Source of the DNA: Pseudomonadota bacterium
GTDB lineage: Bacteria; Pseudomonadota; Gammaproteobacteria; UBA12402
Direction of reading: 5' to 3'
DNA: 64,000 nucleotides
Assembly (NCBI GenBank): GCA_038043025.1
Contig: JBBTCW010000006.1
Coordinates: 26,710 to 90,709, forward strand
Below, piece by piece: positions 6,714 to 61,599 of the stretch. The number at the start of each line of letters is the position of its first letter. Within the stretch, counting starts at the first letter, position 1. Both the position numbers and the translations under genes were made by a program. Under the pieces are notes generated by a model. That model searched no databases. It was not told where the DNA came from and worked only from the letters and a program-made list of their open reading frames with translations.

Positions 6714-7890
6714 TCCTCGTTTATTTATTACAACGTTAAAAAATTGCTTGCCAAGCGCTCAGGCGAGTATTGCATTGCATGAACCGTTATTTGCTGGCAA
6801 TGAATGGCGTTATGTTAAAGAATGTTTGGATACTGGCTGGGTCTCTTCGGGTGGAAAATTTGTGGATCGATTTGAATATGATTTGGCAGCGTACACTGGC
6901 GCGAAACATTGTGTGGTTGCCGTGAATGGTACTGCGGCGTTGCATATTATTTTTTTGTTGGCGGGCATCAAGCCAAATGATGAAGTATTGGTGCCAGCCT
7001 TGACATTTATTGCCACCTGTAACGCGATCGCCTATTGTGGCGGCGTTTCTCATTTTATTGACAGTGAAGAATCTCATTTAGGCATCGATTTTAAAAAATT
7101 GGAACGTTATTTATCTGACATAACAGAAATCAAAGACAATGTTTGTTACAATAAATTAACTAAGCGGCCGATTCGTGCGTTATGTGTAATGCATACGTTT
7201 GGTCATCCCGTGGATTTAGATGCGGCGATGGCTTTATGTGATCGTTATCATTTGAAGTTGATTGAAGATGCGGCTGAAGCATTGGGTTCTTTTTATAAAG
7301 GTCAGCATGTGGGACATCATGGTTTTGCCGGGGCATTAAGTTTTAATGGAAATAAAATCATTACGACAGGTGGCGGCGGAGCAATCGTCACGGATGATGA
7401 AAGCGTGGCTAAAAAAGCGAAGCATATCACGACAACGGCCAAACTGCCGCATCATTGGAAATATGATTATGATTGCATCGGTTATAATTATCGCTTACCG
7501 AATATTAATGCGGCGCTGGGATGTGCGCAGTTAGAAAAACTACCTGAATTTCTGCAGAAAAAACGCCAACTGACAGAACGATATGAAAAAACATTTAAAC
7601 ATTATGATGGATGCCGGTTTATCGAAGAGCCGAAAGAGGCAAAAAGCAACTGTTGGTTAAATGCGATATTGTTGGACAATTCCAGCCAGCATCTTCGCAA
7701 TGATATTTTAGAATTAGCGATTAAAAATAATATTTTTTTGCGGCCGGTGTGGGAGTTGATGGATACATTGCCGATGTATCAACATTGTCCGCGCATGGAT
7801 TTGTCGGGGGCGAAAAGTATCGCTGCTCGATTAATTAATATTCCGAGCAGTGTTTGTTTAAGTGAGGAGCCGGCGTGCGAAAAATATTAG
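6694..7890 (+). CDS. DegT/DnrJ/EryC1/StrS-family PLP-dependent sugar aminotransferase
   Basis: Family-typical layout with SFNGNKIITTGGGGAIVT (PLP lysine), EDAAEALGS and CVMHTFGHP. Confidence 0.75.
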   Translation: MGNMSFDPRLFITTLKNCLPSAQASIALHEPLFAGNEWRYVKECLDTGWVSSGGKFVDRFEYDLAAYTGAKHCVVAVNGTAALHIIFLLAGIKPNDEVLVPALTFIATCNAIAYCGGVSHFIDSEESHLGIDFKKLERYLSDITEIKDNVCYNKLTKRPIRALCVMHTFGHPVDLDAAMALCDRYHLKLIEDAAEALGSFYKGQHVGHHGFAGALSFNGNKIITTGGGGAIVTDDESVAKKAKHITTTAKLPHHWKYDYDCIGYNYRLPNINAALGCAQLEKLPEFLQKKRQLTERYEKTFKHYDGCRFIEEPKEAKSNCWLNAILLDNSSQHLRNDILELAIKNNIFLRPVWELMDTLPMYQHCPRMDLSGAKSIAARLINIPSSVCLSEEPACEKY

Positions 7891-19601: not shown

Positions 19602-20059
19602 AAATAAATCAGCCCATGATCGATGGGGTCTATGTTACACCGCTTAAAAAATTTACGGATGAGCGGGGGATGGTGATGCATATATTGAGTGATATGCAAT
19701 TATCTACTGTTCGAGAAGTCTATGCATCGCTTATCAAAAGCACGGCGATCAAAGCCTGGAAGCGTCATCATAAGATGGTGCAACATTATGCCGTTCCGAT
19801 TGGTAAAATTAAATTAGTATTATTTGACAATCGTCTGAATTCTTCTACCCATAATAGGGTTCAGGAAATAGTGACAGGCATTGATTATTATGGTCTCATT
19901 CAAATTCCGCCCATGGTTTGGTATGGTTTTGAAAGTTTATCAGATGGAGATTCGTTGATTGTTAATGGCGCTTCTTTGCCACATGACCCAAATGAGGTTG
20001 ATTGCTTAGATAAAAATACTCGGGAAATTCCGTATGTATGGGGTGATAATTTAAATTGA
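19589..20059 (+). CDS. RmlC-like cupin NDP-sugar epimerase/isomerase (dTDP-4-dehydrorhamnose 3,5-epimerase family, short form)
   Basis: YVTPLKKFTDERGMVMHIL resembles the RmlC/FdtA cupin family. 156 aa, overlaps the rfbG stop. Confidence 0.5.
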   Translation: MGAIEINQPMIDGVYVTPLKKFTDERGMVMHILSDMQLSTVREVYASLIKSTAIKAWKRHHKMVQHYAVPIGKIKLVLFDNRLNSSTHNRVQEIVTGIDYYGLIQIPPMVWYGFESLSDGDSLIVNGASLPHDPNEVDCLDKNTREIPYVWGDNLN

Positions 20060-20084
20060 GAAATCTCCGCCGCTTGCGGCCGAG
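20051..20084. repeat. 34-bp dispersed hairpin repeat, copy 1 (TTAAATTGAGAAATCTCCGCCGCTTGCGGCCGAG)
   Basis: Near-identical copy at 50987-51020. Contains the imperfect hairpin CTCCGCCGC-ttg-CGGCcGAG. Begins at the stop codon of the upstream gene. Confidence 0.6.
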
Positions 20085-20195
20085 TTGTTGAAAAAATATA
20101 TCCAAGACCTAAGCTCGTAAATTTTACCGCTTTAAAATCGTGGGTTCCCGCTAGATGCTTGTCGGTGTTAATGGTTATTTGAGGGAGGGGAGTAA

Positions 20196-26103: not shown

Positions 26104-27216
26104 GTGAGGCATAAAGTGTTAGATCAAAATTTACGTCAGAGTGAAATAGAAAAGCGTAATCAATTACAACATAACAAGCCGCGTGTTTATGAGAAAATTA
26201 CACGGTTTAAAGATAAAGTTGAACGAGGAGAAAGTATTGCTATTATTCAATTTCAATATAATTATCAATGCAATTTTCGTTGTGAGCATTGTTCAATAAA
26301 AGGGTTTCAAGGCAAACAGGACAAGAGAAAATTTACGATAGAAGATGTAAAAAAGCTTTCATATGAGGCGGATGAAATGGGTTTGGCGCATTTGGTGATT
26401 ACGGGGGGGGAGCCGTTAATTTTTAAAGATTATGATGCATTGATAGCGGCTATTGATCCCAGCAAATTTTATATTAGTTCTGATACAAATGGTTGGTTTT
26501 TAGATGCTGAAAGAGCGCGTCATCTTAAAGAGATTGGCGTGGATAAAATTCAATTGAGTCTTGATAGCCTTGATGCGGATTCTCACGATGCGTTTAGAGG
26601 AGCGCCCGGATCACATGCGCGCGCGTTACGTGCGATTGATGCAGCGCAGAATGCTGGCTTAAATATTATTGTACAAACGGTTGTCACAAAGACCCGATTG
26701 CATACGGATGAATTTATTCGTTTTTTAGAGTTTTTAAATGCTAAAAATGTTGGCGTATTTGTGACTTATGCCAAACCTGTAGGCGCGTGGGAAGGGCATT
26801 TTGAAGAATTGGTTGATCTTGATGACATGGCTTATATGCGAGAGCTCGAGAAAAAACATAATGTATTTACGCATTTAACGCCGTCTTATGGATTGGATTT
26901 AGGTTGCTTAGCAGTTAAGCGAATGATTTCTGTTACACAATACGGTGATGTTTTGCCTTGCCCATATATTCATACATCGATAGGGAACGTATTTCAAGAG
27001 TCATTACAAAAGATTATTAATCGAGGGTTAAGTATTAAATATTTTGGCGAATATGTGGAGACTTGTTTGATCGCAGAAGATAGAAAATTTATCCATGATT
27101 ATGTGGTGAAAAAAATATATGGCAAGCCATTACCTGTTCCATATGATGAGGTGTTTGATGCGGAGAGCGATTATATAAAAGATAAGGTTGATGCGGCTTG
27201 GGTAGAGGTAGAGTAG
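26104..27216 (+). CDS. Radical SAM protein with SPASM/twitch-like C-terminal domain
   Basis: CNFRCEHC (CX3CX2C) and GGEPL motifs. C-terminal GDVLPCPY is SPASM-like. Apparent GTG start. Confidence 0.65.
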   Translation: MRHKVLDQNLRQSEIEKRNQLQHNKPRVYEKITRFKDKVERGESIAIIQFQYNYQCNFRCEHCSIKGFQGKQDKRKFTIEDVKKLSYEADEMGLAHLVITGGEPLIFKDYDALIAAIDPSKFYISSDTNGWFLDAERARHLKEIGVDKIQLSLDSLDADSHDAFRGAPGSHARALRAIDAAQNAGLNIIVQTVVTKTRLHTDEFIRFLEFLNAKNVGVFVTYAKPVGAWEGHFEELVDLDDMAYMRELEKKHNVFTHLTPSYGLDLGCLAVKRMISVTQYGDVLPCPYIHTSIGNVFQESLQKIINRGLSIKYFGEYVETCLIAEDRKFIHDYVVKKIYGKPLPVPYDEVFDAESDYIKDKVDAAWVEVE

Positions 27217-46253: not shown

Positions 46254-48325
46254 CGCAGGCGCCGCTGCCAAAATTAAAACATTTACTGTTAGCTGTTTTT
46301 AAAAGCGCGCCATCCGATGATCAGTTATCGGCATGTTGGCAAACGCCGGGAGGAAAATCTTTTTGGTTATCACGCTCGAGTTGGGCATTAAAAGCGATTG
46401 TGCTTTGGTGGGAGAAGACGTTTGATCGAGCACCGATTATTTGGTTTCCAGATTATTTTTGTAATGAAGCATTAAGTTTAGTGCGTACCACATCCGCGAC
46501 GATCAAGTTTTATTCTGTCGATAAAAATTTAATGCCCAAATGGGATGTATGTCATGCCTTAGCGAAAACGGCAAAGCCCGATATTTTTGTGTTAGTGCAT
46601 TATTTTGGACAACCATCGGATCTTGTTGGCGCCAAACAATTTTGCGAAGCATATCAATCGTTAATCATTGAGGATGCAGCGCATGTACTTTGTCCAACGG
46701 CTGACATTGGAAGTGTGGGGCATTTTACGCTTTATAGCCCACATAAATTGTTAGCGGTTCCGCATGGTTCGATTTGCGTGATGTCTCCGAAAAAAATTAA
46801 GCGATTATATCCAAGTCCGAGCAACTCGGCAGGGATAATGACTAACGTGATAGAAGGTTTTGGTCATCATGCGCCGGCTGTTTTTCCGTGGATTTTAAAA
46901 CGATTGATTCAGAAAGTTGTCCCTTCATTTTTTATCTATCGTAAAACGCCGGTACAAACATCCGTACAGTGTTGTTCGACCTTGCCTGCCCTGCATCCAT
47001 TTATTAAAAAATTATTGTATATTGAGTTACGAGAAATGAGTGCCGTTGAAAAATGGCGCCGTGAAAATCGGCAATTTTATGATATGTTGATAAATCTTGA
47101 AGGGAATGGTTCTTTAATAGGGGATGACAAACATATTCCGTATTTGGCTGTTTTTACGGGTATTGAGCAGCATGGTTTTAACAAGGCGTTAACATACTTG
47201 ATGCAAAAATGGCCTGATTTGCCGCCAGAAGTGGTACATGAGCCATTGTTACACGCGGATGCGATACAATTTTATTCATCGATGATTGCTTTTCCGGTGC
47301 ATCAGTCATTAACATTATCTCATTATTTTAAGCACTATCTTAAAAAGAATATAAAGTCTAAGTTAAAACGTATTTTACCCCTGTATTCGCTGAGACAGGA
47401 TCATCCGGACGAGTATAAAAAACTGTTTCATCATGTTCCCTATTCTAATTTGTTGCAATCATCGTTGTATGGTGAAGCGAAGCATCATGCAGAAGCGTGG
47501 GACGTGAGTCATTTGATTATATTGAAAAATAAAATGCCATTGGCTATTTGTCAGTTATTGCAAAAAAAGCTGTTTGGTTTTTTTTGCTTGTATCGTATTA
47601 ATCGAGGACCTGTTTGGCTGTCATCAAGCGTGGGGTATTTTGATAAAATAGCCTGTTTATCTTTATTGAAAAAAAGATTTTCTGGTATCTTCAGTAGAAA
47701 AATTTTAAGTATTGCGCCGGAGTTATCTGAGAACATTGATCATTATTATTTATTGTCGCTTTTAGGCTATCATCACGTGAAGAAACAACCCTATTCTTCA
47801 GCGATGATAGATTTATCTCAATCGGAAGATTTTTTGCGTAAACAATTGTCGGGGAAATGGCGAAATCAACTTTGTTCCGCAGAAAAATTAGATATATTGA
47901 TTGAGATTGAATCGGGGATTGATGCCTTAATGTGGCTATTAAAAAAATATCATGAGTTTAAAAAAAGCAAAGATTTTTCGGGCGTTTCAGAAAAGCTTAT
48001 TCATTATATGGCTCAACAATCTTTTGATCCAGAGTGTTTTGTGACATTGCGCGCAAGCTATCAAGATGAATATGTTGCGGGCATCTTGGTGTATCGACAT
48101 GGACAAACGGCAACGTATTTTATTGGCTGGAATGGTGAAGTGGGTCGAAAAATTTATAGTAATAACTTATTATTATGGCGCGCCATATTGGAGTTAAAAT
48201 CTATCCATTGTTCTTATTTTGATTTAGGCGGCATTGATGCGAAAAATACGCAGGCGATTAGCCATTTTAAACAAGGCGTTAGAGGCAAGGATTACTCGTT
48301 GTTAGGGGAGTTCGTTTGTTTATGA
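46247..48325 (+). CDS. Fusion: DegT-like PLP-fold domain (N-terminal) + FemAB/GNAT-type acyltransferase domain (C-terminal)
   Basis: N-terminal half has IIEDAAHVLCP and YSPHKLLAVPHGS, matching DegT-fold positions. C-terminal YFIGWNGEVGRKIYSNNLLLWRAILELK is typical of the FemAB/Acetyltransf_6 family. Confidence 0.45.
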   Translation: MLTQAPLPKLKHLLLAVFKSAPSDDQLSACWQTPGGKSFWLSRSSWALKAIVLWWEKTFDRAPIIWFPDYFCNEALSLVRTTSATIKFYSVDKNLMPKWDVCHALAKTAKPDIFVLVHYFGQPSDLVGAKQFCEAYQSLIIEDAAHVLCPTADIGSVGHFTLYSPHKLLAVPHGSICVMSPKKIKRLYPSPSNSAGIMTNVIEGFGHHAPAVFPWILKRLIQKVVPSFFIYRKTPVQTSVQCCSTLPALHPFIKKLLYIELREMSAVEKWRRENRQFYDMLINLEGNGSLIGDDKHIPYLAVFTGIEQHGFNKALTYLMQKWPDLPPEVVHEPLLHADAIQFYSSMIAFPVHQSLTLSHYFKHYLKKNIKSKLKRILPLYSLRQDHPDEYKKLFHHVPYSNLLQSSLYGEAKHHAEAWDVSHLIILKNKMPLAICQLLQKKLFGFFCLYRINRGPVWLSSSVGYFDKIACLSLLKKRFSGIFSRKILSIAPELSENIDHYYLLSLLGYHHVKKQPYSSAMIDLSQSEDFLRKQLSGKWRNQLCSAEKLDILIEIESGIDALMWLLKKYHEFKKSKDFSGVSEKLIHYMAQQSFDPECFVTLRASYQDEYVAGILVYRHGQTATYFIGWNGEVGRKIYSNNLLLWRAILELKSIHCSYFDLGGIDAKNTQAISHFKQGVRGKDYSLLGEFVCL

Positions 48326-49452
48326 GATTAGGTATTGATGCATCCAATATTCGCAGTGGTGGTGGGGTTGTGCATCTTGTTGAGCTTTTAAATAATTTAG
48401 ATCCTCATTCCTATGGTATAAATAACGTTATCGTTTGGGGAGGAGAGACTTTGTTATCTCAGTTGCCCAAAAAAGATTGGTTGCAGTTGCAGTTCGTACC
48501 GATATTAAATCGACATGTTTTGTATCGCAGTTTATGGCAGCGATTTAGCTTGCCCAAGCTGGCAGAGCAACAGTGCGATATCTTATTTGTGCCAGGCGGC
48601 ATTTGTTATGCGCGACGATTGCCTTACGTTGTTCTATGTCAAAATATGCTGCCGTTTTTATGGAAAGAAATTTTTAGTTATGTAAGATATTTTCGGTTTT
48701 TTCGGTTGTTGTTATTGCGATATGCGCAGATACGATCTTTTAAAAAAGCCAGCGGCGTTATTTTTTTAACGGATTATAGTTTGGAGATTGTACGAAAAAA
48801 AACGCATATTACAATGAATAAATCTTGTGTCATTCCTCATGGAATCAATCCAGATTTTTATGTTGAACCCCGGCATCAAAAACCGATTAAACATTATAAT
48901 GCTGAAAATCCGTTCGAATTATTATATGTTTCAACGATTGATTTTTATAAACAGCAGGATCAGGTGGTGAAGGCCGTTGTTAAATTAAGGAAATGTGGGT
49001 ATCCGGTGATATTGCGTTTAGTGGGTGCCGCATATCCGCCCGCGTTGAGGCGTTTGCAGAAGTTATTAAATAAAGTTGATCCACAGCATAAAACAGTGAT
49101 ATATGAGGAGGGAGGGCAATATCCCCATATCCGAGATTTTTATCGCAGAGCGGATTTATTTATTTTTGCGTCTCGTTGCGAAGCTTTTGGTAATACATTG
49201 TTGGAAGCGGCCGCATCGGGGTTACCGATTGTTTGTTTGAAAGGGCAGCCTATGCAAGAACTCTTGCAGAATGCGTGCGAATACTTTACAGTTGCCGATG
49301 CGGATGAGATTTGCTGTGCGATTAAAAAGTTACTCGACGATGAATCGTTGCGTTTTCAATATGCTCAAAAAGCATATCAACGGGCAAAAAACTATTCTTG
49401 GAATAAAACGGCAGAAAAAACGGGCAGATTTATTAACGCGAGTTTTGGATAG
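48316..49452 (+). CDS. Glycosyltransferase family 4
   Basis: RCEAFGNTLLEAAASGLPIVC EX7E-type motif. Confidence 0.65.
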   Translation: MFMRLGIDASNIRSGGGVVHLVELLNNLDPHSYGINNVIVWGGETLLSQLPKKDWLQLQFVPILNRHVLYRSLWQRFSLPKLAEQQCDILFVPGGICYARRLPYVVLCQNMLPFLWKEIFSYVRYFRFFRLLLLRYAQIRSFKKASGVIFLTDYSLEIVRKKTHITMNKSCVIPHGINPDFYVEPRHQKPIKHYNAENPFELLYVSTIDFYKQQDQVVKAVVKLRKCGYPVILRLVGAAYPPALRRLQKLLNKVDPQHKTVIYEEGGQYPHIRDFYRRADLFIFASRCEAFGNTLLEAAASGLPIVCLKGQPMQELLQNACEYFTVADADEICCAIKKLLDDESLRFQYAQKAYQRAKNYSWNKTAEKTGRFINASFG

Positions 49453-49531
49453 GCGAAAGTCGCTATTAATTGCCTGATTAAAGGTGGCTTTGCCTGGTGA
49501 ATTATCCCAAATAGATAGAGGCAGAAAGATA

Positions 49532-50950
49532 ATGAAACTAACAGAAATCGAAACTCTGGCAAAAAAAGGCGAGTCTGATGCTTTAGAATTTAAAAAATCT
49601 ACTGCGCAGCTGAAAAGTGCGGGTGAAACACTGTGTGCATTTTTGAATAATCATGGCGGGATAATTTTCATTGGCGTTAATGATCATGGTGCAATCATTG
49701 GGCAACAAGTAACAGAGCATACAAAACGAGAAATCGGTAGCATTTTAGCTAAAGTAGCTCCAGAACATAATGTCGATGTTCTATATGTTGATATTAATAA
49801 AACTAAACAGGTCATCGTGTTGCGAGCAACGCCTCACATAGATTTACAGCCATATACATTTGATAGCAAAGCGTATGTTCGCGTTGAATCAAGCACCTAT
49901 CCTATGTCTCGAGATCAATATCAAAGAATGAGTTTAAACTATATGCAACAGCACCGTAGCTGGGAGAATGGGATTATAAAAGATGCTTCAATAGAGGATT
50001 TAGATGCTGAAGAAATTATGAGGACAATAACTGAAGGAATCGCTAATAAAAGAATACCTGCTGATCAAGCGGCCAGCAGTCCTGAAAGGGTGTTAAAACG
50101 ACTTGGGCTGCTCAAGAATAACCAGATAACCAATGCGGCCATTGTATTATTTGCCAAAGAGCCAACCCAGCGGCTTCATCAATGCTCTATTCGTTTAGCC
50201 CGATTTAGAGGGTTAGATAAATCAGAATTTGTGGATAGCAAGGTAGTAGATGGCAATGCTTTTACTTTAATTAATGCTGCCATGTCTTTTGCTGATTTAT
50301 ACTTGCCCGTCAGCAGTAAGTTTGGCTCAGGAAAAATCGAAAGAATTGATGAGCCATTATTTCCGATAGATGCGTTAAGAGAGGTGTTTGCTAATGCGGT
50401 TGGCCATAGAGACTATGCTATGCATACCGCGACGCTCAGTTTTGCGATTTATGAAAATCGACTTGAAATTTGGTCGCCGGGTTTACCGCCCGATGGGGTG
50501 ACTTTCGAGAATATTAAAACCCTGCACGAATCCATACCCAGAAACCGACTGATCACAAAAGTACTTTATTATCGCAAACTTTTTGAGTCATGGGGAAGGG
50601 GAATTCAAAAAATTATAACCCTATGCACGGAAGCCGGCCATCCAGAGCCGGAATTTGTTGAAAGAACCGGTGGGGTATGTGTAATTTTAAAGTCAAAACA
50701 ATCGATAGGCGCGCCAATAATATATGATAAGCAAACAGAAGAAAGAATTAAATTAACTGATAGACAAAAAGAAATTTTATCTATTATTAAGGAAAAGCGT
50801 CAAGCGACATTGCCAGAAATAATTCAAGCTTTAACAGATAAAGCAGCCAAACGCACAGTGCAACGCGAATTAGCTAGACTTAAAGATTTTGGTCTGATTT
50901 CATTGAGGGGAGGAACAAAGGGATCTGTATGGGAAATAATTGCGCCATAA
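49532..50950 (+). CDS. AlbA_2 (Schlafen-like) DNA-binding domain + HATPase_c_4 + C-terminal wHTH protein (putative regulator/ATPase)
   Basis: N-terminus KKGESDALEFKKS...AFLNNHGGIIFIGVNDHG is typical of AlbA_2 'divergent AAA' proteins. C-terminal HTH-like segment. Start at MKLTEIE (RBS GAAAGA). Confidence 0.5.
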   Translation: MKLTEIETLAKKGESDALEFKKSTAQLKSAGETLCAFLNNHGGIIFIGVNDHGAIIGQQVTEHTKREIGSILAKVAPEHNVDVLYVDINKTKQVIVLRATPHIDLQPYTFDSKAYVRVESSTYPMSRDQYQRMSLNYMQQHRSWENGIIKDASIEDLDAEEIMRTITEGIANKRIPADQAASSPERVLKRLGLLKNNQITNAAIVLFAKEPTQRLHQCSIRLARFRGLDKSEFVDSKVVDGNAFTLINAAMSFADLYLPVSSKFGSGKIERIDEPLFPIDALREVFANAVGHRDYAMHTATLSFAIYENRLEIWSPGLPPDGVTFENIKTLHESIPRNRLITKVLYYRKLFESWGRGIQKIITLCTEAGHPEPEFVERTGGVCVILKSKQSIGAPIIYDKQTEERIKLTDRQKEILSIIKEKRQATLPEIIQALTDKAAKRTVQRELARLKDFGLISLRGGTKGSVWEIIAP

Positions 50951-50986
50951 TTGCGCCACATTTACGACACAATTGCGCCATTGTAT

Positions 50987-51020
50987 TTAAATTGAGAAAT
51001 CTCCGCTGCTTGCGGCGGAG
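50987..51020. repeat. 34-bp dispersed hairpin repeat, copy 2 (TTAAATTGAGAAATCTCCGCTGCTTGCGGCGGAG)
   Basis: 32 of 34 positions match the copy at 20051-20084. Preceded by three copies of AATTGCGCCA (50938-50980). Confidence 0.6.
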
Positions 51021-51068
51021 TCAAGGGCGATGGGGAATCAATTAAGGAAACAAAATATTGAGATCATT

Positions 51069-52199
51069 ATGATGAAATTATTAGTTATATTTGGCACGCG
51101 ACCTGAAGCGATTAAACTGGCGCCTGTTATCCATGCGGCTCGTCTCGATGCGCGTTTTGATGTGCAAGTTTGCGTGACGGGTCAACATCGCGAGATGTTG
51201 GATCAGATGTTAGCATTATTTGACATCAAACCCGATTATGATCTCGATATTATGTTGAGTAATCAGCATGTCTTGGATATGACGAGTCGTATTTTATCGG
51301 GGTTGAAGTCAGTTTTGTTTCGCGCACAACCTGATTATATTATTGTGCAAGGTGACACGACCAGTGCGTTTATGGGTGCATTGGCCGGATTTTATTTCAA
51401 AATTCCTGTGGGACATGTGGAAGCAGGATTGCGTACGCACGATTTATATTCGCCTTTTCCGGAAGAAGCGAATCGAACATTGATCACACGATTAGCGCAT
51501 CATCATTTTGCGCCGACTAAAAAAGCGTATGATAACTTGGTGCGAGAAAATATTGCGGTGGATTGTATTACCGTGACAGGAAATACGGTCATTGATGCAT
51601 TGTTATGGGTTTGTAAAAAAAATAAATTAAAAACGGATTGGAGTGATGTTTTTGGCTCAATTTATAAAGTGCTGCAGCCGAAAAAACCCATTATTCTGGT
51701 GACCGGGCATCGTCGAGAGAGTTTTGGACAAGGGTTTTTAAATATTTGTAAAGCATTGGCAACGATTGCTGAAAATCATCCTGATTGGCATATCATTTAT
51801 CCGGTACATTTAAATCCACATGTGCAAGAGCCCGTGCGGGGAATGCTTGATAAATATGATAATGTTCATTTACTTGCGCCATTGGAATATGCGCCTTTTG
51901 TTTATTTGATGCAGCAAGCGCATTTAATTTTGACCGATTCTGGTGGGATACAAGAAGAAGCACCGGCATTAGGCAAGCCGGTGTTGGTGATGCGTGATGT
52001 GACAGAGCGACCCGAAGCCATTGAAGCAGGCACAGCCATTTTGGTGGGAACCGATGCGGCGCGCATTATTGCTGAAGTAGAGGATTTAATGCATAATGCA
52101 GCGCGATATGAAGCAATGGCGCGAATCAATAATCCCTTTGGTGATGGGTGTTCAGCGCGGCGTATTTTAGATAAAATTTTGGAAACATCAGATGAATAA
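51069..52199 (+). CDS. UDP-N-acetylglucosamine 2-epimerase (non-hydrolysing), WecB-like
   Basis: MMKLLVIFGTRPEAIKLAPVI N-terminus is characteristic of WecB/MnaA. Confidence 0.7.
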   Translation: MMKLLVIFGTRPEAIKLAPVIHAARLDARFDVQVCVTGQHREMLDQMLALFDIKPDYDLDIMLSNQHVLDMTSRILSGLKSVLFRAQPDYIIVQGDTTSAFMGALAGFYFKIPVGHVEAGLRTHDLYSPFPEEANRTLITRLAHHHFAPTKKAYDNLVRENIAVDCITVTGNTVIDALLWVCKKNKLKTDWSDVFGSIYKVLQPKKPIILVTGHRRESFGQGFLNICKALATIAENHPDWHIIYPVHLNPHVQEPVRGMLDKYDNVHLLAPLEYAPFVYLMQQAHLILTDSGGIQEEAPALGKPVLVMRDVTERPEAIEAGTAILVGTDAARIIAEVEDLMHNAARYEAMARINNPFGDGCSARRILDKILETSDE

Positions 52200-56921: not shown

Positions 56922-58009
56922 TGAATAAATATAAATTAACTGTCATTGTGCCCTGTTATAATGAAGAGAAAACCCTGGCGTTTTGTCTTCAGCGAGTATT
57001 AGAAATACAAAGCGACCTGATTTCATTAGAAATTATTATTGTCGATGATTGTTCATCTGATCACAGTATGCGGGTTGCCAAATCACTGTCTGAAAAACAT
57101 CAAGAAATCGTTGTTGTTTCGCATTCAAAAAATCAAGGTAAAGGTGCGGCAATTAGAACGGGGATGCAACATGCTTCAGGGGATTTTGTAGCTGTGCAAG
57201 ATGCTGATCTTGAATATAACCCGATAGAATTGATCAAACTTTTGCAGCCGATCATTAATGATGTTGCAGATGTGGTGTTAGGATCTCGGTTTGTGACGAG
57301 TCAAGAACATCGCGTTTTATATTTTTGGCATAGTCTGGGTAATAAATTTTTAACGTTGCTTTCTAATATGTTCACCGACTTAACTCTTAGTGATATGGAA
57401 ACTTGTTACAAGGTTTTTCGGCGTGATAAAATTCAAGATATTATCATCGAAGAAAATCGTTTTGGATTCGAGCCAGAAATTGTTGCTAAAATAGCACAGA
57501 AAAAATTGCGTATTTATGAAATGGGTATTTCTTATCATGGGCGTACCTATGAAGAAGGGAAGAAGATTGGTTGGAAAGACGGGTTGCGAGCTTTTTATTG
57601 CATTTTTCATTATAACGCTCCACAGTTGCCGGCACCCATGCAGTTTTTTATATATTTTTTTATTGGTGGTTTTTCAGCAATTATCAATATTGCAACGTTC
57701 TCTTTTTTATATGCGATGGGGAGGGGCATTATTTCTTCAGCAATAATATCTTTTTCTATTTCTGCGATAGTGAATTATATCTTATGTGTCAAATGGTTGT
57801 TTAGACACCAGTCAAGATGGCGCGCTTGTTTAGAAATATTATTCTACATCATCTTTGTTGCTCTGATCGGTGTTATAGATGTATCTCTTACCCTTTCATT
57901 GTCAAAAACCTTGCGTCCCGTTTTTGCTATAACAATCGCGAGCACAGTGGTATTTGTTGTGAACTTTTTCACAAGAAAATATTTTATTTTTGGCGAAAAA
58001 AAGAGTTAA
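56921..58009 (+). CDS. Polyprenyl-phosphate glycosyltransferase (GT2, DPM1/ArnC-like) fused to a GtrA-like TM domain
   Basis: LTVIVPCYNEEKTL...IIVDDCSSD, VQDADLE. C-terminal 100 aa hydrophobic (FFIGGFSAIINIATFSFLYAMG). Confidence 0.65.
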   Translation: MNKYKLTVIVPCYNEEKTLAFCLQRVLEIQSDLISLEIIIVDDCSSDHSMRVAKSLSEKHQEIVVVSHSKNQGKGAAIRTGMQHASGDFVAVQDADLEYNPIELIKLLQPIINDVADVVLGSRFVTSQEHRVLYFWHSLGNKFLTLLSNMFTDLTLSDMETCYKVFRRDKIQDIIIEENRFGFEPEIVAKIAQKKLRIYEMGISYHGRTYEEGKKIGWKDGLRAFYCIFHYNAPQLPAPMQFFIYFFIGGFSAIINIATFSFLYAMGRGIISSAIISFSISAIVNYILCVKWLFRHQSRWRACLEILFYIIFVALIGVIDVSLTLSLSKTLRPVFAITIASTVVFVVNFFTRKYFIFGEKKS

Positions 58010-59811
58010 TGGATTAATTTTATCAGATAAAATGTTTGTTGTTGAACCGTATTTCGTATTCGCGAAAAAGATAAGTTTTCAGTATGCGCAAAAATATGTT
58101 TCGCATAATGTTCTTTGATTAAATTATCCAATAGCTTGTCCATGTTTGCACCGCCTGGAATATTGCTCCAATGTTTTTCATAAAAGATATAGTTAATGTT
58201 GAAATTTTTTAAAATTTTAACGAGCTGTTTTGTGTTCGTTATATCTTGCCAATCAATTAATCCCGAGAGATTGGGTTCTGCACTTAAATAAGGACGATCA
58301 AGATAATAAGTTTGACCGGCGCGTAAGATGCATAAAATTTTGGCGTTTTTCGCCGTATGTTGTTTGATCCATTGATAATCACCATAATTCCACGTGTATT
58401 GATGGTATTGATCGAGATTGGGATGGAAATAATATTTGATATAAAAAATAGAATAATAAGGCGCTAAGACTATAAAATAGCTCAGTGTGATGACTAAAAT
58501 TACATTACAGACTAATTTTTCTGATTTGTTTTGCAAGTTATCATAATATTTAATGGCAATCAATAATCCAATGGGTAGCGCGTAGAAAGCAAAACGGATA
58601 TAAAAAGTCGGTTCGACGATCCACCAAAGCATAAAGTAAGTAATTAACCCTAATCGTATTTGTAGTTTTTTGATCCGTGTAAATATTGCGCCAGCGATAA
58701 TTAAGATCCATAATGTGACCGGAATTAAGGGGTCGAGCAGAAATGCTTTAATATCAACAATAATGCTATTTATATTGTGATGACCGCTCACATCACTTGT
58801 GAATTTTTGGGCCATAATTTGTATGCTGTGAGAAGATGATCCAAAAATATTTTGCGCGAGCGGCCAAACAGGATTGCCCAAATTAATATAGTTTCTGATA
58901 TAGCAAGGCGATGCGATAAGCGTCATCAGTATCAGCGCATTGATGAGGGGTGTCTTTTTTTCTTTTTCTAATTGTGTATAAGCCAGTATGATATACCAAG
59001 GGATAAACAAGATGCTTTGGTATTTTACGCCTAGAGCAAAGCCAAGCGCAGCAAATGCGATATAGATACTGCTTTTTTTATGCGAGTCGGTTGTTAAAAA
59101 CAGAAAACCGATCAAACTATAAAATATAACTATCCAGTCATTGGTGACAATATGTGCTTCGTGATAAGCGAGCGGCGTTAGAAATAGGATAATAAAAAAT
59201 AATCGCGTATGCTTTAGGTTAACTCGAGCTGCTAAGTATTGTAGAATGAGCAGTGAAAATAAAAAATATAAACAAACGGCCAATTCCACACCTACTCCGC
59301 CAAATAAAATAAAGGAAGGCAAAAACATCAGATGAAAAAAAATCGGGAAGTTATAATGTATATAGGGTCTGAAGACAAAGCCGTGATTTAATACGATATC
59401 TTTCATTTGAGCTAAATGGTAACGCATGGCATCAGCGGATCGCTCTGGCGTGTATGCCAATAAAATAATCCATACAATTAAAAAAATGAGTGTGCCTATA
59501 AAATATACGCTCCACCGATCCTGTTTGATTAAATGTTCTCTTAAAAAGCAGCCAATGGATTTTAGTGTCGTCCATAATGTTTTTATATAAAATGATGCGA
59601 TAATCAGCGAGAGCAGGGTGAAACCTAAAATATATCCGGGGGTTGCGAGCATCCATTCTGTCACGAAGAACAGATAAAATGCGGTGATGATAGAGCCAAA
59701 CAGAAAGCCGGCAATGAGCTTTTGAAAGGGATCGCATTTTAATCGTGCCGCGAGCGGCATTCCCAACCCACAGATGGTTAAAAAATATACTAAATTAAAA
59801 ATGAGTGCCAT
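58006..59811 (-). CDS. GT-C-fold membrane glycosyltransferase (ArnT/PMT-like, GT39/GT83-type)
   Basis: 601 aa, more than 10 TM helices, convergent with and adjacent to the polyprenyl-P GT2 gene. ArnT/PMT-like topology with a periplasmic C-terminal domain. Confidence 0.5.
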   Translation of the reverse strand: MALIFNLVYFLTICGLGMPLAARLKCDPFQKLIAGFLFGSIITAFYLFFVTEWMLATPGYILGFTLLSLIIASFYIKTLWTTLKSIGCFLREHLIKQDRWSVYFIGTLIFLIVWIILLAYTPERSADAMRYHLAQMKDIVLNHGFVFRPYIHYNFPIFFHLMFLPSFILFGGVGVELAVCLYFLFSLLILQYLAARVNLKHTRLFFIILFLTPLAYHEAHIVTNDWIVIFYSLIGFLFLTTDSHKKSSIYIAFAALGFALGVKYQSILFIPWYIILAYTQLEKEKKTPLINALILMTLIASPCYIRNYINLGNPVWPLAQNIFGSSSHSIQIMAQKFTSDVSGHHNINSIIVDIKAFLLDPLIPVTLWILIIAGAIFTRIKKLQIRLGLITYFMLWWIVEPTFYIRFAFYALPIGLLIAIKYYDNLQNKSEKLVCNVILVITLSYFIVLAPYYSIFYIKYYFHPNLDQYHQYTWNYGDYQWIKQHTAKNAKILCILRAGQTYYLDRPYLSAEPNLSGLIDWQDITNTKQLVKILKNFNINYIFYEKHWSNIPGGANMDKLLDNLIKEHYAKHIFAHTENLSFSRIRNTVQQQTFYLIKLIH

Positions 59812-60004: not shown

Positions 60005-61432
60005 ATGACGAAATTCATTGGGCGCGAGAAAGAATTGAGCCTTTTAAACCGATTTTCTAAAAAGCGATCAGCGTCTTTTCTGATTGTGCGAGGTCGTCGC
60101 AGAATCGGAAAAAGTCGTCTAATTGAGGAATTTGCAAAACCATATAAGTTTTATACCTTTTCAGGTATTGTTCCGACAGAAAAAACCACAGCACAATCAC
60201 AGCGAGACGAATTCGCAAGTCAACTCAGTCAGCAAGACTTTCCAAAAGTGAAAGCGCAGGACTGGAATGATTTGTTTTGGCTTTTGGCGGATAAGGTGAA
60301 AAAGGGTAAGGTCGTTATTTTGTTGGATGAAATATCTTGGATGGGCGACAAAGATCCTGATTTTTTGGGCAAACTCAAAAATGTTTGGGAGCAGCATTTT
60401 AAAAAAAACAACCAGCTCATTCTCATTGTCTGTGGATCGGCATCATCCTGGATAGAAAAAAATGTTTTAAGTAGCACAGGGTTTGTGGGTCGCATTTCGT
60501 TTGTATTAACCTTAGAGGAGTTGCCGTTAAAGGATTGTCAAGATTTTTGGCGTCAAGCAGCTGCACATATTTCTGCAATGGAAAAATTAAAGATGTTATC
60601 GGTGACCGGTGGAGTACCACGGTATTTAGAGGAAATTGACCCGGCATTAAGCGCAGAAGCCAATATTAAAAATATGTGTTTTACCAAGGGTGCTTTTTTA
60701 GTTGACGAATTTGAGAGAATTTTTTCAAATCTTTTTTTAAGAGACAGCGAGGCCTATAAAAAAATAATAGAGGTGTTGGCGACGGGGAGTAAAGAATTCA
60801 AGGAAGTGAGCCAATTGCTGGGTACTGATATGTCGGGTAGAACATCAGATTATCTGGACGAGCTAATATTGGCAGGATTTGTCAACCGAGATTATACGTG
60901 GCATTTAAAAGATGGCAAAGATGCCAAGCTGAGCAAATTCAGGCTGAGGGATAACTATTTGCGTTTCTATTTAAAATATATCCAAAAATATAAAACAAAA
61001 ATAGAACGAAATGCATTTGATTTTAAGTCTCTTTACGCTTTGCCCGGCTGGGATGCAATCATTGCGTTACAGTTTGAGAATTTAGTTTTAAACAATCGGC
61101 ATTTTTTATGGGAAAAACTTTCAATCAGATCCGAAGATATTTTGTCAGAAAATCCATTTTTTCAACATAAAACAGCCACACAATTGGGTTGCCAAATAGA
61201 TTATTTAATTCAAACACGTTTTGGCACGGCGTATATTTGTGAAATCAAATTTTCTAAAAACAAAATCACTGAACGCGTCATAGAGGAAGTGCAAGAAAAG
61301 ATCTTAAGGTTAAAACGCCCTAAAGGCATGTCGTGTCGATCGGTGTTGATTCACGTGAATGGTGTTGAAAATAATTTAATTGAACAGGAATATTTTTCAG
61401 ATATCATTGATTTTAGCGAAATCCTGAAATAA
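60005..61432 (+). CDS. AAA+ ATPase (Arch_ATPase-type) with DUF234-like C-terminal domain
   Basis: MTKFIGREKELSLLNRF...LIVRGRRRIGKSRLIEEF is typical of the archaeal-type ATPase/DUF234 family. Confidence 0.55.
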   Translation: MTKFIGREKELSLLNRFSKKRSASFLIVRGRRRIGKSRLIEEFAKPYKFYTFSGIVPTEKTTAQSQRDEFASQLSQQDFPKVKAQDWNDLFWLLADKVKKGKVVILLDEISWMGDKDPDFLGKLKNVWEQHFKKNNQLILIVCGSASSWIEKNVLSSTGFVGRISFVLTLEELPLKDCQDFWRQAAAHISAMEKLKMLSVTGGVPRYLEEIDPALSAEANIKNMCFTKGAFLVDEFERIFSNLFLRDSEAYKKIIEVLATGSKEFKEVSQLLGTDMSGRTSDYLDELILAGFVNRDYTWHLKDGKDAKLSKFRLRDNYLRFYLKYIQKYKTKIERNAFDFKSLYALPGWDAIIALQFENLVLNNRHFLWEKLSIRSEDILSENPFFQHKTATQLGCQIDYLIQTRFGTAYICEIKFSKNKITERVIEEVQEKILRLKRPKGMSCRSVLIHVNGVENNLIEQEYFSDIIDFSEILK

Positions 61433-61461: not shown

Positions 61462-61599
61462 GCAAGCTGCAGGGCATTATCCGATTCTGTTCAAAACTTA
61501 AGCAATTAAAAATTTTAGTCTTAGCTTGTTCGGAGCTCGCGTTTTAAGAATAGATTCTGATAATATGTCCCATTGTTTTTGACCAAAGGTTGTTTATTT

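Follow-up and report, generated by a model that had tools for sequence, protein, structure and literature searches.

The 64-kb window analysed here (positions 26,710 to 90,709 of contig JBBTCW010000006.1, assembly GCA_038043025.1, from a gammaproteobacterium of the group UBA12402) contains, within a surface-glycan cluster, a gene for a stand-alone prokaryotic Schlafen protein, and a short tandem array of 11-bp units lies across the 3' end of this gene. The array travels with the gene: it keeps its position and period across phyla, differs in sequence from one protein lineage to the next, and depends for its presence on one type of C-terminal winged helix-turn-helix (wHTH) domain in the encoded protein, for which, judging from sequence comparisons, it is probably the docking site. 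The gene itself, a bacterial relative of the human antiviral Schlafen RNases, belongs to a class that is known and very common, and is in this respect ordinary; the array is the new result. It is mentioned neither in two recent papers on the family (PMC13056530; bioRxiv 10.64898/2026.05.29.728809), nor in a serine-recombinase/Schlafen paper, nor in the papers found by the Pfam names of the family in a search covering open-access articles and bioRxiv. All positions given below are those of the whole window, and L-numbers denote fetched comparison loci or contigs.

The Schlafen gene and its 3' tandem array

The mechanically called open reading frame (ORF) extends on the + strand from a GTG at 49484 to 50950, and the ATG at 49532 is the start that aligns with the N-termini of all homologues and of P0001, a 472-aa protein in the public collection that is 100% identical to the window protein and present on three groundwater-metagenome contigs. 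The features of the gene and its immediate surroundings, with the evidence for each from Pfam, AlphaFold2 (AF2), Foldseek, Tandem Repeats Finder (TRF) and homologue comparison, are as follows.

49435-49531, + strand: leader of 97 nt, with a GAGG ribosome-binding site 11-14 nt ahead of the ATG
49532-50950, + strand: Schlatpase-HTH gene, 472 aa plus stop (ORF, Pfam, homologue alignment, AF2, Foldseek)
49532-49951, + strand: Schlafen (SLFN_AlbA_2) nuclease-type domain, residues ~1-140 (Pfam, Foldseek)
49571-49594, + strand: candidate catalytic motif E14-SDAL-E19-F-K21, Ex4ExK (homologue invariance; motif definition in PMC13056530)
50339-50701, + strand: GHKL/Bergerat-type ATP-binding domain (PF13749), residues ~270-390 (Pfam, invariant residues, Foldseek)
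50744-50947, + strand: C-terminal wHTH, residues ~405-472 (AF2, Foldseek, weak Pfam HTH matches)
50936-50981, no strand assigned: tandem array of 11-bp units ATAATTGCGCC / ATAATTGCGCC / ACATTTACGAC / ACAATTGCGCC (TRF), the proposed wHTH site

A consensus scan identified no convincing + strand sigma-70 promoter in the leader and no terminator-like site 3' of the gene, and the leaders of the four closest relatives cannot be aligned.

Three domains can be recognized in the protein. Pfam places SLFN_AlbA_2 (PF04326) at residues 14-126 (E 1.3e-20, 74.5 bits against a cut-off of 25.3) and HATPase_c_4 (PF13749) at residues 304-386 (E 5.7e-20), with sub-threshold wHTH matches at residues 407-460 (Penicillinase_R, LexA_DNA_bind), while an NCBIfam search of the protein returned nothing exceeding noise. 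The AF2 model, built from 44 homologues with a mean predicted local distance difference test score (pLDDT) of 87.9, runs from an alpha/beta domain at the N-terminus through a helical segment and a Bergerat-type domain to a disordered linker (residues 395-404) and a three-helix wHTH (residues 410-469) with helices H1 (410-422), H2 (427-433) and the recognition helix H3 (440-452), followed by a wing (456-469). In Foldseek, the N-terminus matches SLFN12/11/13/14/5 and the tRNase domain of SAMD9, including the structure of the SAMD9 DNA-binding domain (DBD) with DNA (7ksp). The centre matches the catalytic domains of histidine kinases and PDK (CpxA, PDK2, ThkA), and the C-terminus the DNA-binding domains of MecI/BlaI, Fur and the BpsR/MarR type at a root mean square deviation of 1.5-2.7 A. 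For the whole chain, the match from the Protein Data Bank is DIP2311 (3LMM; E 1.9e-20 over ~490 columns), which is also the only solved structure recovered by sequence search, and there only marginally (E 0.055).

Residues E14, E19 and K21 are invariant across 44 homologues of 42-80% identity, and in the same set so are the N-box residues R283, E284, N288, H292, R293 and Y295, G317, and the motif E352-x-W354-G355-x-G357; a canonical G1-box aspartate is not evident in the GHKL domain, where the sequence reads SPG. The Schlafen RNase-type domain thus carries an intact predicted catalytic motif of the form Ex4(E/D)xK, as defined for prokaryotic Schlafens (pSlfns) and SLFN11 (PMC13056530), and the gene is a stand-alone member of the class variously called Schlatpase-HTH or pSlfn-HisKinase-HTH. 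The latter composition is the second commonest among 5,930 prokaryotic Schlafens, of which it makes up 19.2% (PMC13056530). The pair of SLFN and PF13749 has been named the 'Schlatpase' supradomain in a 2026 preprint, in which SLFN is combined with GHKL in 58.6% of 103,533 prokaryotic SLFN-domain proteins and most Schlatpases are small proteins with a terminal HTH (bioRxiv 10.64898/2026.05.29.728809).

A first-pass annotation of the window had described the protein as AlbA_2/Schlafen-like with HATPase_c_4 and HTH domains. Pfam, AF2 and Foldseek confirm this architecture, the domain assignment by hidden Markov models placing the first two domains above threshold and the HTH below it, but the accompanying label of a putative ATP-dependent DNA-binding regulator is outdated, as current descriptions treat the family as RNases of the prokaryotic Schlafen type that are switched by ATP through a GHKL domain (PMC13056530; bioRxiv 10.64898/2026.05.29.728809). 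The same annotation had raised a housekeeping protein such as genuine RecG, in conserved synteny away from glycan loci, as the competing assignment. Source records do carry the name 'ATP-dependent DNA helicase RecG', which derives from an earlier title of PF13749, and the label of PHROG 12156 is 'DNA helicase'. However, no helicase motor or wedge domain was found in Pfam or NCBIfam at E <= 0.1, the fold matches are restricted to Schlafen, GHKL and wHTH domains, and synteny is not conserved. A RecG-type helicase or other housekeeping repair protein is thereby refuted at the domain level, and we regard it as having practically no chance of being correct. A complete known defence system was likewise rejected, since the PADLOC matches are partial only: they involve the Schlatpase part of pAgo/Aga models (the pAgo model PDLC02394 aligns to residues 31-318), along with weak HTH matches to CARF/Csa3 regulators.

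The array in the window (TRF: period 11, 4.2 copies, score 57) begins within the last four codons of the gene, so that its first unit encodes I-I-A-P and the stop codon falls within the second. Comparable arrays follow the closest relatives. The loci L003 (76% identity) and L008 (78%) carry four and five copies of ATAATTGCGCC, respectively, in contexts unrelated to that of the window, and L007 (76%) has three copies of ATAATTACGAC at the equivalent place, its protein differing beside the recognition helix (K440 replaced by Q, and AA by VT). At greater distance the unit itself changes, to a different 11-bp unit in L005 (62% identity) and a 10-bp unit in L006 (60%). The window array mixes unit types, with three units having the core TTGCGCC, as in L003 and L008, and one having the TTACGAC of the L007 unit.

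A wider sample of 80 loci was fetched from species-representative genomes (37-76% identity), comprising Gamma-, Alpha- and Deltaproteobacteria, Acidobacteriota, Planctomycetota, Verrucomicrobiota, a Firmicute, Parachlamydiaceae and Legionellales. By eye, 3-10 units in tandem can be seen in nearly all of these, directly at the stop codon or shortly behind it. Cultured organisms with arrays are Propionispora sp. 2/2-37 (L024), Mycoavidus cysteinexigens (L043, L064) and, among more distant relatives, Rhodothermus marinus DSM 4252 (L101). With a strict gapless tandem score of >=15, arrays were detected at 53% of 81 family 3' ends but at only 1.3% of 771 control ORF ends, the controls being the other ORF ends within the same loci (Mann-Whitney p = 1e-40). 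This score was relied on because a count of 8-mer words with one mismatch proved non-discriminating, its background being too high (counts >=4 in 95% of family ends vs. 43% of controls). In the 42 clean arrays the period is either 10 (28 loci) or 11 (14 loci) and never anything else, although 8-13 was allowed, and the spacings between same-strand units peak at 10 (139) and 11 (80). These arrays have a median of 3.9 copies (range 2.6-10.2), and 32 of the 42 start no more than 12 nt past the stop codon. The unit sequence, in contrast to period and position, is lineage-specific, with examples including GAATAAGGCGG, ATATTCGGAC, GCTTCGGCAA, GAATCGTGCA and AAAGGCGGAG. A different layout is found in six loci from Bryobacterales/Acidobacteriota (L042, L052, L063, L065, L068, L075), where two or three forward units (GGCGGAATRAGGCGG) are followed by a short spacer and two inverted units; unlike the purely tandem arrays, this arrangement is a long palindrome, which might additionally serve as a terminator or fold into an RNA hairpin.

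An operator upstream of the gene was rejected as a candidate, as the 220 nt ahead of the start codon contain words of the array without clear enrichment (18 vs. 11.7 expected), so the array is not part of a classical promoter operator; within the gene, 69 such words were counted vs. 72.2 expected.

Presence of the array follows the type of the C-terminal domain. Twelve relatives on viral contigs, which are 33-37% identical in the Schlatpase part and end in another C-terminal domain (of the '..KYRLTEKG..' type), have no array (scores <=6), and neither does an HTH-less member in a type I restriction-modification-like operon on IncC plasmids, whereas L104, whose wHTH is of the type found in the window protein, is followed by seven copies of a 10-bp unit. 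Among relatives of ~26-30% identity the picture is mixed: Rhodothermus marinus plasmid pRMAR01 (L101) has four copies of AATTGGGCAAG over the stop codon, in the Rhizobium etli and Aeromonas members the units are dispersed and occur in either orientation, and no tandem array was found for the members in Hymenobacter, Mycoplasmopsis, Parabacteroides and mycobacteriophage Squirty (gp31). The plasmid and phage collections contributed 189 plasmid and 40 phage records, those listed being at ~36% identity or less, and served mainly as distant controls.

Lineages with a common recognition helix also have a common unit. The helix RT[LF]RD[DE]LLHLK is paired with GAATAAGGCGG, [AT]TVRDDLYHLK with AAT[GA]AGC[TC]GG, R[MT][IL]Q.[DE]LA.L with GAATAGCGCA, ERW[VL]RD.LNKLK with CTTCGG[CA]A, and LRTVK.DL with AATCGTGCAG, and within the clade of the window protein K440-RTVQR occurs with TTGCGCC and Q-RTVQR with TTACGAC. 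Orientation can be reversed: in L067 all 13 units lie on the opposite strand, and in L069 most units are reversed, whereas L025 and L026, with H3 helices 93% identical to that of L069, have forward arrays. The array period matches the helical repeat of B-DNA. At the RNA level, there was no Rfam match at E <= 1, and the predicted fold of 50925-51068 is no more stable than that of shuffled sequences (z = -0.30). Because arrays are flipped in L067 and L069, several Bryobacterales loci combine direct with inverted units, the period is that of B-DNA, the wHTH resembles those of DNA-binding repressors, and no Rfam or RNA-stability signal was detected, we infer that the array acts as double-stranded DNA rather than as sense-strand RNA.

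The docking model and its alternatives

Taken as a whole, the composite reading that the wHTH docks on the double-stranded array and thereby controls an ATP-switched Schlafen RNase cassette appears to us somewhat more probable than its negation. The wHTH, on its flexible linker, would contact the array through the recognition helix, with one protomer per helical turn, an arrangement resembling the tandem binding of OmpR/PhoB-type regulators and of SopB on sopC. Control could then be exerted by two routes. On the first, the occupied array would throttle synthesis of the protein as a roadblock where the ORF ends, whatever promoter the cassette lands behind, which fits the unconserved leader and the overlap of the array with the stop codon. 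On the second, protomers would be tethered in an inactive row that competes with an ATP-driven active tetramer, as in RzAgo, a SLFN-pAgo protein of Runella zeae in which ATP binding by PF13749 leads to tetramerisation and tRNA cleavage (bioRxiv 10.64898/2026.05.29.728809). The released or activated Schlafen domain may cleave tRNA or other RNA, and the cassette may act as an abortive-infection-type defence or as an addiction module.

A bolder form of the docking model, which we consider rather unlikely, would make the array a DNA-level 'antitoxin' or tether. Here, the wHTH domains would line up the protomers on the DNA of their own cassette, blocking formation of the active tetramer or throttling synthesis, and destruction, occupation or loss of the array DNA (by phage nucleases, DNA mimics or loss of the cassette) would free the tRNA-cleaving activity. 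If true, the cassette would, as a module for defence or addiction, sense whether one particular stretch of self DNA is intact. Control of this type has, to our knowledge, not been described for any toxin-antitoxin or defence system.

Several observations weigh against the docking model or restrict what can be drawn from it. In partial Mantel tests the unit correlates with H3 given the N-terminus (r = 0.39, 0/2000 permutations), but equally significantly with the N-terminus given H3 (r = 0.43), so that the covariation of unit and helix is inseparable from co-descent and is compatible with recognition without proving it; a specific helix-unit code was rejected as proof on the same grounds. Three loci with the same wHTH type (L106, L074, L084) have no array, and the relatives at ~26-30% identity mostly lack a tandem array (L095-L098). 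The array is forward in most loci and its first units are transcribed and translated, which would allow a role at the RNA level. As to the direction of regulation, the results are equally compatible with a roadblock, a tether and an activator. The immediate neighbours of the family loci are mostly ordinary genes, with only occasional defence genes, and HisKinase-type pSlfns assayed in Escherichia coli did not protect against the panel of phages (PMC13056530).

The forward orientation is one of the points that speak for an array working as RNA, in which 3'-untranslated repeats would be bound or cut by the Schlafen RNase and serve as an antitoxin or regulator in cis, in the manner of type III toxin-antitoxin systems such as ToxIN. 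The partner is indeed an RNase-type domain, at least the first units are in the mRNA since the array lies over the stop codon, and RNA binding locks the Schlafen domains of RzAgo in an inactive filament (bioRxiv 10.64898/2026.05.29.728809). Nevertheless, a period confined to 10-11 nt in all lineages is a property of the DNA helix, the arrays of L067 and L069 are wholly or mostly reversed while the recognition helices are conserved, and array presence tracks the wHTH type. Together with the missing Rfam match, the unremarkable RNA stability and units far shorter than the 34-45-nt repeats of type III antitoxins, this makes an RNA-based function unlikely. Similarly, we see little probability in a non-catalytic, autoregulated DNA-binding protein with no role in defence, which corresponds to the old COG2865 view of a 'predicted transcriptional regulator'. 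AlbA_2 domains can be DNA-binding modules, as illustrated by the SAMD9 structure 7ksp among the fold matches, and besides the negative phage assays of HisKinase-type proteins it has been found that 30.4% of pSlfns are not near known defence genes, although 69.6% lie within 10 kb of them (PMC13056530). Against a non-catalytic protein stand the invariance of E14, E19 and K21 among the 44 homologues and the ATP-dependent tRNase activity of the homologous Schlatpase module in RzAgo.

The array could also be a by-product of mobility or of replication slippage, a recombination or attachment scar with no role in the function of the protein. Its location where the conserved part of the cassette ends on the 3' side and the variation in copy number from 2.6 to 10 would fit such an origin, as would the integrases that are the commonest neighbours of family loci (5/130) and an insertion in the window that shows neither a recombinase nor a target-site duplication. 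A scar does not readily explain why position and period are fixed while unit sequences differ between lineages, or why the unit is 100% conserved between proteins that are only 76-78% identical. In addition, the insert in the window runs 75 nt past the array, and the equally mobile viral-contig relatives with other C-terminal domains have no array. We therefore judge a by-product quite improbable.

Schlatpases, and Schlatpase-HTH proteins among them, are the most abundant prokaryotic Schlafens, and the array offers a testable handle on what they sense and how they are kept off. Provided that the wHTH binds it as its cognate site, the commonest class of prokaryotic Schlafens gains a component that was missing so far, and its regulation becomes directly testable. 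The array may also explain why constructs would fail when cloned without the 3' flank or with only part of it, and its sequence can serve as a simple marker for annotating such cassettes and delimiting them.

Insertion of the cassette into the surface-glycan cluster

The first-pass annotation had noted a non-glycan gene between a GT4 glycosyltransferase gene and the wecB module, preceded by a 79-bp gap and followed by direct repeats and a dispersed hairpin element, all of which are indeed present. The gap upstream covers 49453-49531, and another 79 nt separate the gene from the mechanically called next ORF (51030). Downstream lie the wecB-like Epimerase_2 gene and then a UDP-sugar dehydrogenase gene. 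The direct repeats, treated in that annotation as incidental flanking sequence, are the array and thus a conserved part of the cassette of the gene family. The features of this region are as follows.

48322-49452, + strand: GT4 glycosyltransferase, 3' end altered by the insertion
49435-51056, + strand: inserted cassette of ~1.62 kb (alignment of both window junctions with the L091 empty site)
50984-51021, + strand: 38-nt hairpin element TATTTAAATTGAGAAATCTCCGCTGCTTGCGGCGGAGT, inside the insert, with a local stem visible in the fold
51069-52199, + strand: wecB-like UDP-GlcNAc 2-epimerase (Epimerase_2), probable true start MMKLLVIFG
20048-20085: second copy of the 38-nt element (sequence repeat in the window)
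58006-59811, - strand: 601-aa protein without a Pfam or PADLOC match
60005-61432, + strand: ATPase_2/AAA protein with a full-length match to PDC-S27, a candidate defence family in PADLOC (E 5e-86)

The metagenome contig L091 has the same gene order as 42.7-55.3 kb of the window, with a GT4 gene that is 87% identical, and lacks the Schlafen gene. In this empty site the GT4 stop codon overlaps the wecB start in an ATGA at 7134-7137 (alignment over L091:6980-7200). The comparison indicates that the gene entered the surface-glycan cluster on a cassette of ~1.6 kb and separated GT4 from wecB at a junction where the two had been translationally coupled. The insertion replaces ~9 nt of this junction and rewrites the last GT4 codons, so that the GT4 protein ends in ..GRFINASFG* in the window and in ..GIFIDEVLRSL* in L091. 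For wecB, the ATG at 51069 is probably the ancestral start, and the extension in frame that begins at 51030 is, on this alignment, inserted DNA. No target-site duplication or recombinase was seen at the insertion in the junction alignment with L091.

The ATGA overlap is destroyed by the insertion, which may therefore be polar on wecB and the genes following it. Between 49001 and 51000 the AT skew is positive (+0.075, +0.124) in a mostly negative window and the GC skew is 0.11-0.17 instead of ~0.2, and the two together are consistent with a foreign origin of the insert. In L002, a second contig with an identical gene, several neighbours are split or shortened relative to L001 (a GT2 gene at 516-1438 and the radical-SAM, GT2/GtrA, 601-aa and PDC-S27 genes), although both contigs match the window exactly around the Schlafen gene; the cause is either pseudogenisation of the glycan region at the level of strains or errors in assembly.

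Two roles had been offered for the gene, regulation of the cluster or a hitch-hiking, defence-associated presence, and the findings favour the latter. Regulation of the surrounding glycan genes might be suspected of a protein with an HTH that is encoded on the same strand inside the cluster, and a distant family member in Parabacteroides also lies between glycosyltransferase genes. However, the syntenic L091 cluster does without the gene and has GT4 and wecB translationally coupled, the close homologues are never found in glycan clusters, and glycosyltransferases account for just 2 of 130 immediate neighbours. Within the 64 kb, the 10-mer core of the array is not repeated exactly at any other place, and copies with one mismatch occur at chance level (13 vs. 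11.7 expected). A transcriptional regulator of the cluster is thus very improbable, and the proposal that the gene regulates the glycan genes is largely refuted. Its position in the cluster is instead an accident of insertion, and illustrates how cassettes can break a translationally coupled operon junction.

The hitch-hiker proposal is supported by the L091 empty site, by close homologues that lie in unrelated places beside toxin-antitoxin pairs, a Gabija-like pair and integrases, and by a PDC-S27 gene nearby. The neighbourhood is not conserved among close homologues, and the gene is absent from the related L091 cluster. All five closest homologues with enough context (57-80% identity) occupy different, unrelated neighbourhoods: between pta and pepN, by ParDE, by OLD-TOPRIM/UvrD (Gabija-like) and HicAB, by an integrase, and by RelB/YafQ. 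For 71 genome loci, the 130 immediate neighbours match 184 Pfam families, the commonest being Phage_integrase (the 5/130 given above). The upstream neighbour is co-directional in 49 of 71 loci and the downstream neighbour in 35 of 72, which is not decisive for the roadblock route.

The PDC-S27 gene is found 9 kb downstream of the Schlafen gene in the same glycan region. It forms a pair with the 601-aa gene near the end of this region, after which follows an epimerase gene at 61573, and this pair also looks like an insertion. The Parabacteroides member (L097, P. distasonis NZ_OY725760.1, 1495-2826; 26% identical, without an array) overlaps the next GT4 gene, and a second gene, for an 'RNA-binding domain-containing protein', starts 1.3 kb further on; glycan loci may thus be recurrent landing sites for the Schlafen family. 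A phage-borne member, gp31 of Mycobacterium phage Squirty (L098, 1441-2877), is annotated as 'RecG-like DNA helicase', is 25% identical and is followed by no array. It is located between an integrase region and gp29/gp30 (RelA/SpoT-like), in the part of temperate mycobacteriophage genomes that carries prophage-expressed defence genes.

The 38-nt element (WATTTAAATTGAGAAATCTCCGCYGCTTGCGGCSGAGT) combines an AT-rich arm with an 8-bp GC hairpin and has no T-run. Its two copies in the window, vs. 0 expected from shuffled sequences, both follow unrelated genes, and it is absent from the cassettes of all fetched relatives. It looks like a host-specific element resembling repetitive extragenic palindromes (REP) or terminators. 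The copy at 50984-51021 lies within the 1.62-kb insert and either entered with it or was added later.

Relation to known systems

The closest parallels to the protein are found among characterized Schlafens. RzAgo has the same order of SLFN_AlbA_2 (PF04326) and PF13749 in one chain, but the window protein lacks the Argonaute core with its guide-RNA sensor and has a wHTH and a cognate-looking DNA array instead. The pSlfns RorSlfn5 and EcoSlfn7 (PMC13056530) are likewise encoded by single genes scattered in variable regions and combine an Ex4(E/D)xK nuclease domain with a C-terminal 'sensor', although in these proven systems the sensors are Ig-like or DUF262 domains. DIP2311 of Corynebacterium diphtheriae (3LMM), an uncharacterised protein from structural genomics, is the sole full-length structural relative that has been solved, at 13-17% identity to the window protein. 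The human proteins SLFN11/13/14 and the tRNase domain of SAMD9 share the homologous nuclease fold and motif as well as control by an ATPase and nucleic-acid sensing, whereas the bacterial protein has a C-lobe-like AlbA_2 unit only, a GHKL instead of an SF1 ATPase, and in addition the wHTH.

For the array, two classes of loci offer themselves for comparison. In type III toxin-antitoxin systems (ToxIN, CptIN, TenpIN), repeats of 34-45 nt lie upstream of the toxin gene and give rise to a processed, strand-specific RNA. The Schlafen cassette resembles them as a compact mobile module in which an endoribonuclease-type gene is linked to a short tandem array, with a putative abortive-infection logic, but its units are 10-11 bp long, lie downstream, can be flipped, track a DNA-binding domain and give no RNA structure signal. 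In plasmid partition loci such as F sopB-sopC and P1 parB-parS, the gene for an HTH centromere-binding protein is followed by its tandem-repeat site. The Schlafen loci differ from these in having no ParA/SopA partner or any other conserved neighbour, in being chromosomal single-gene cassettes with an RNase-type effector, and in a unit length of 10-11 bp vs. 43 bp in sopC. Still, with binding presumed for the Schlafen array, the layout is the same in both: the gene for a DNA-binding protein stands directly ahead of a tandem array, and array and protein co-evolve and move together.

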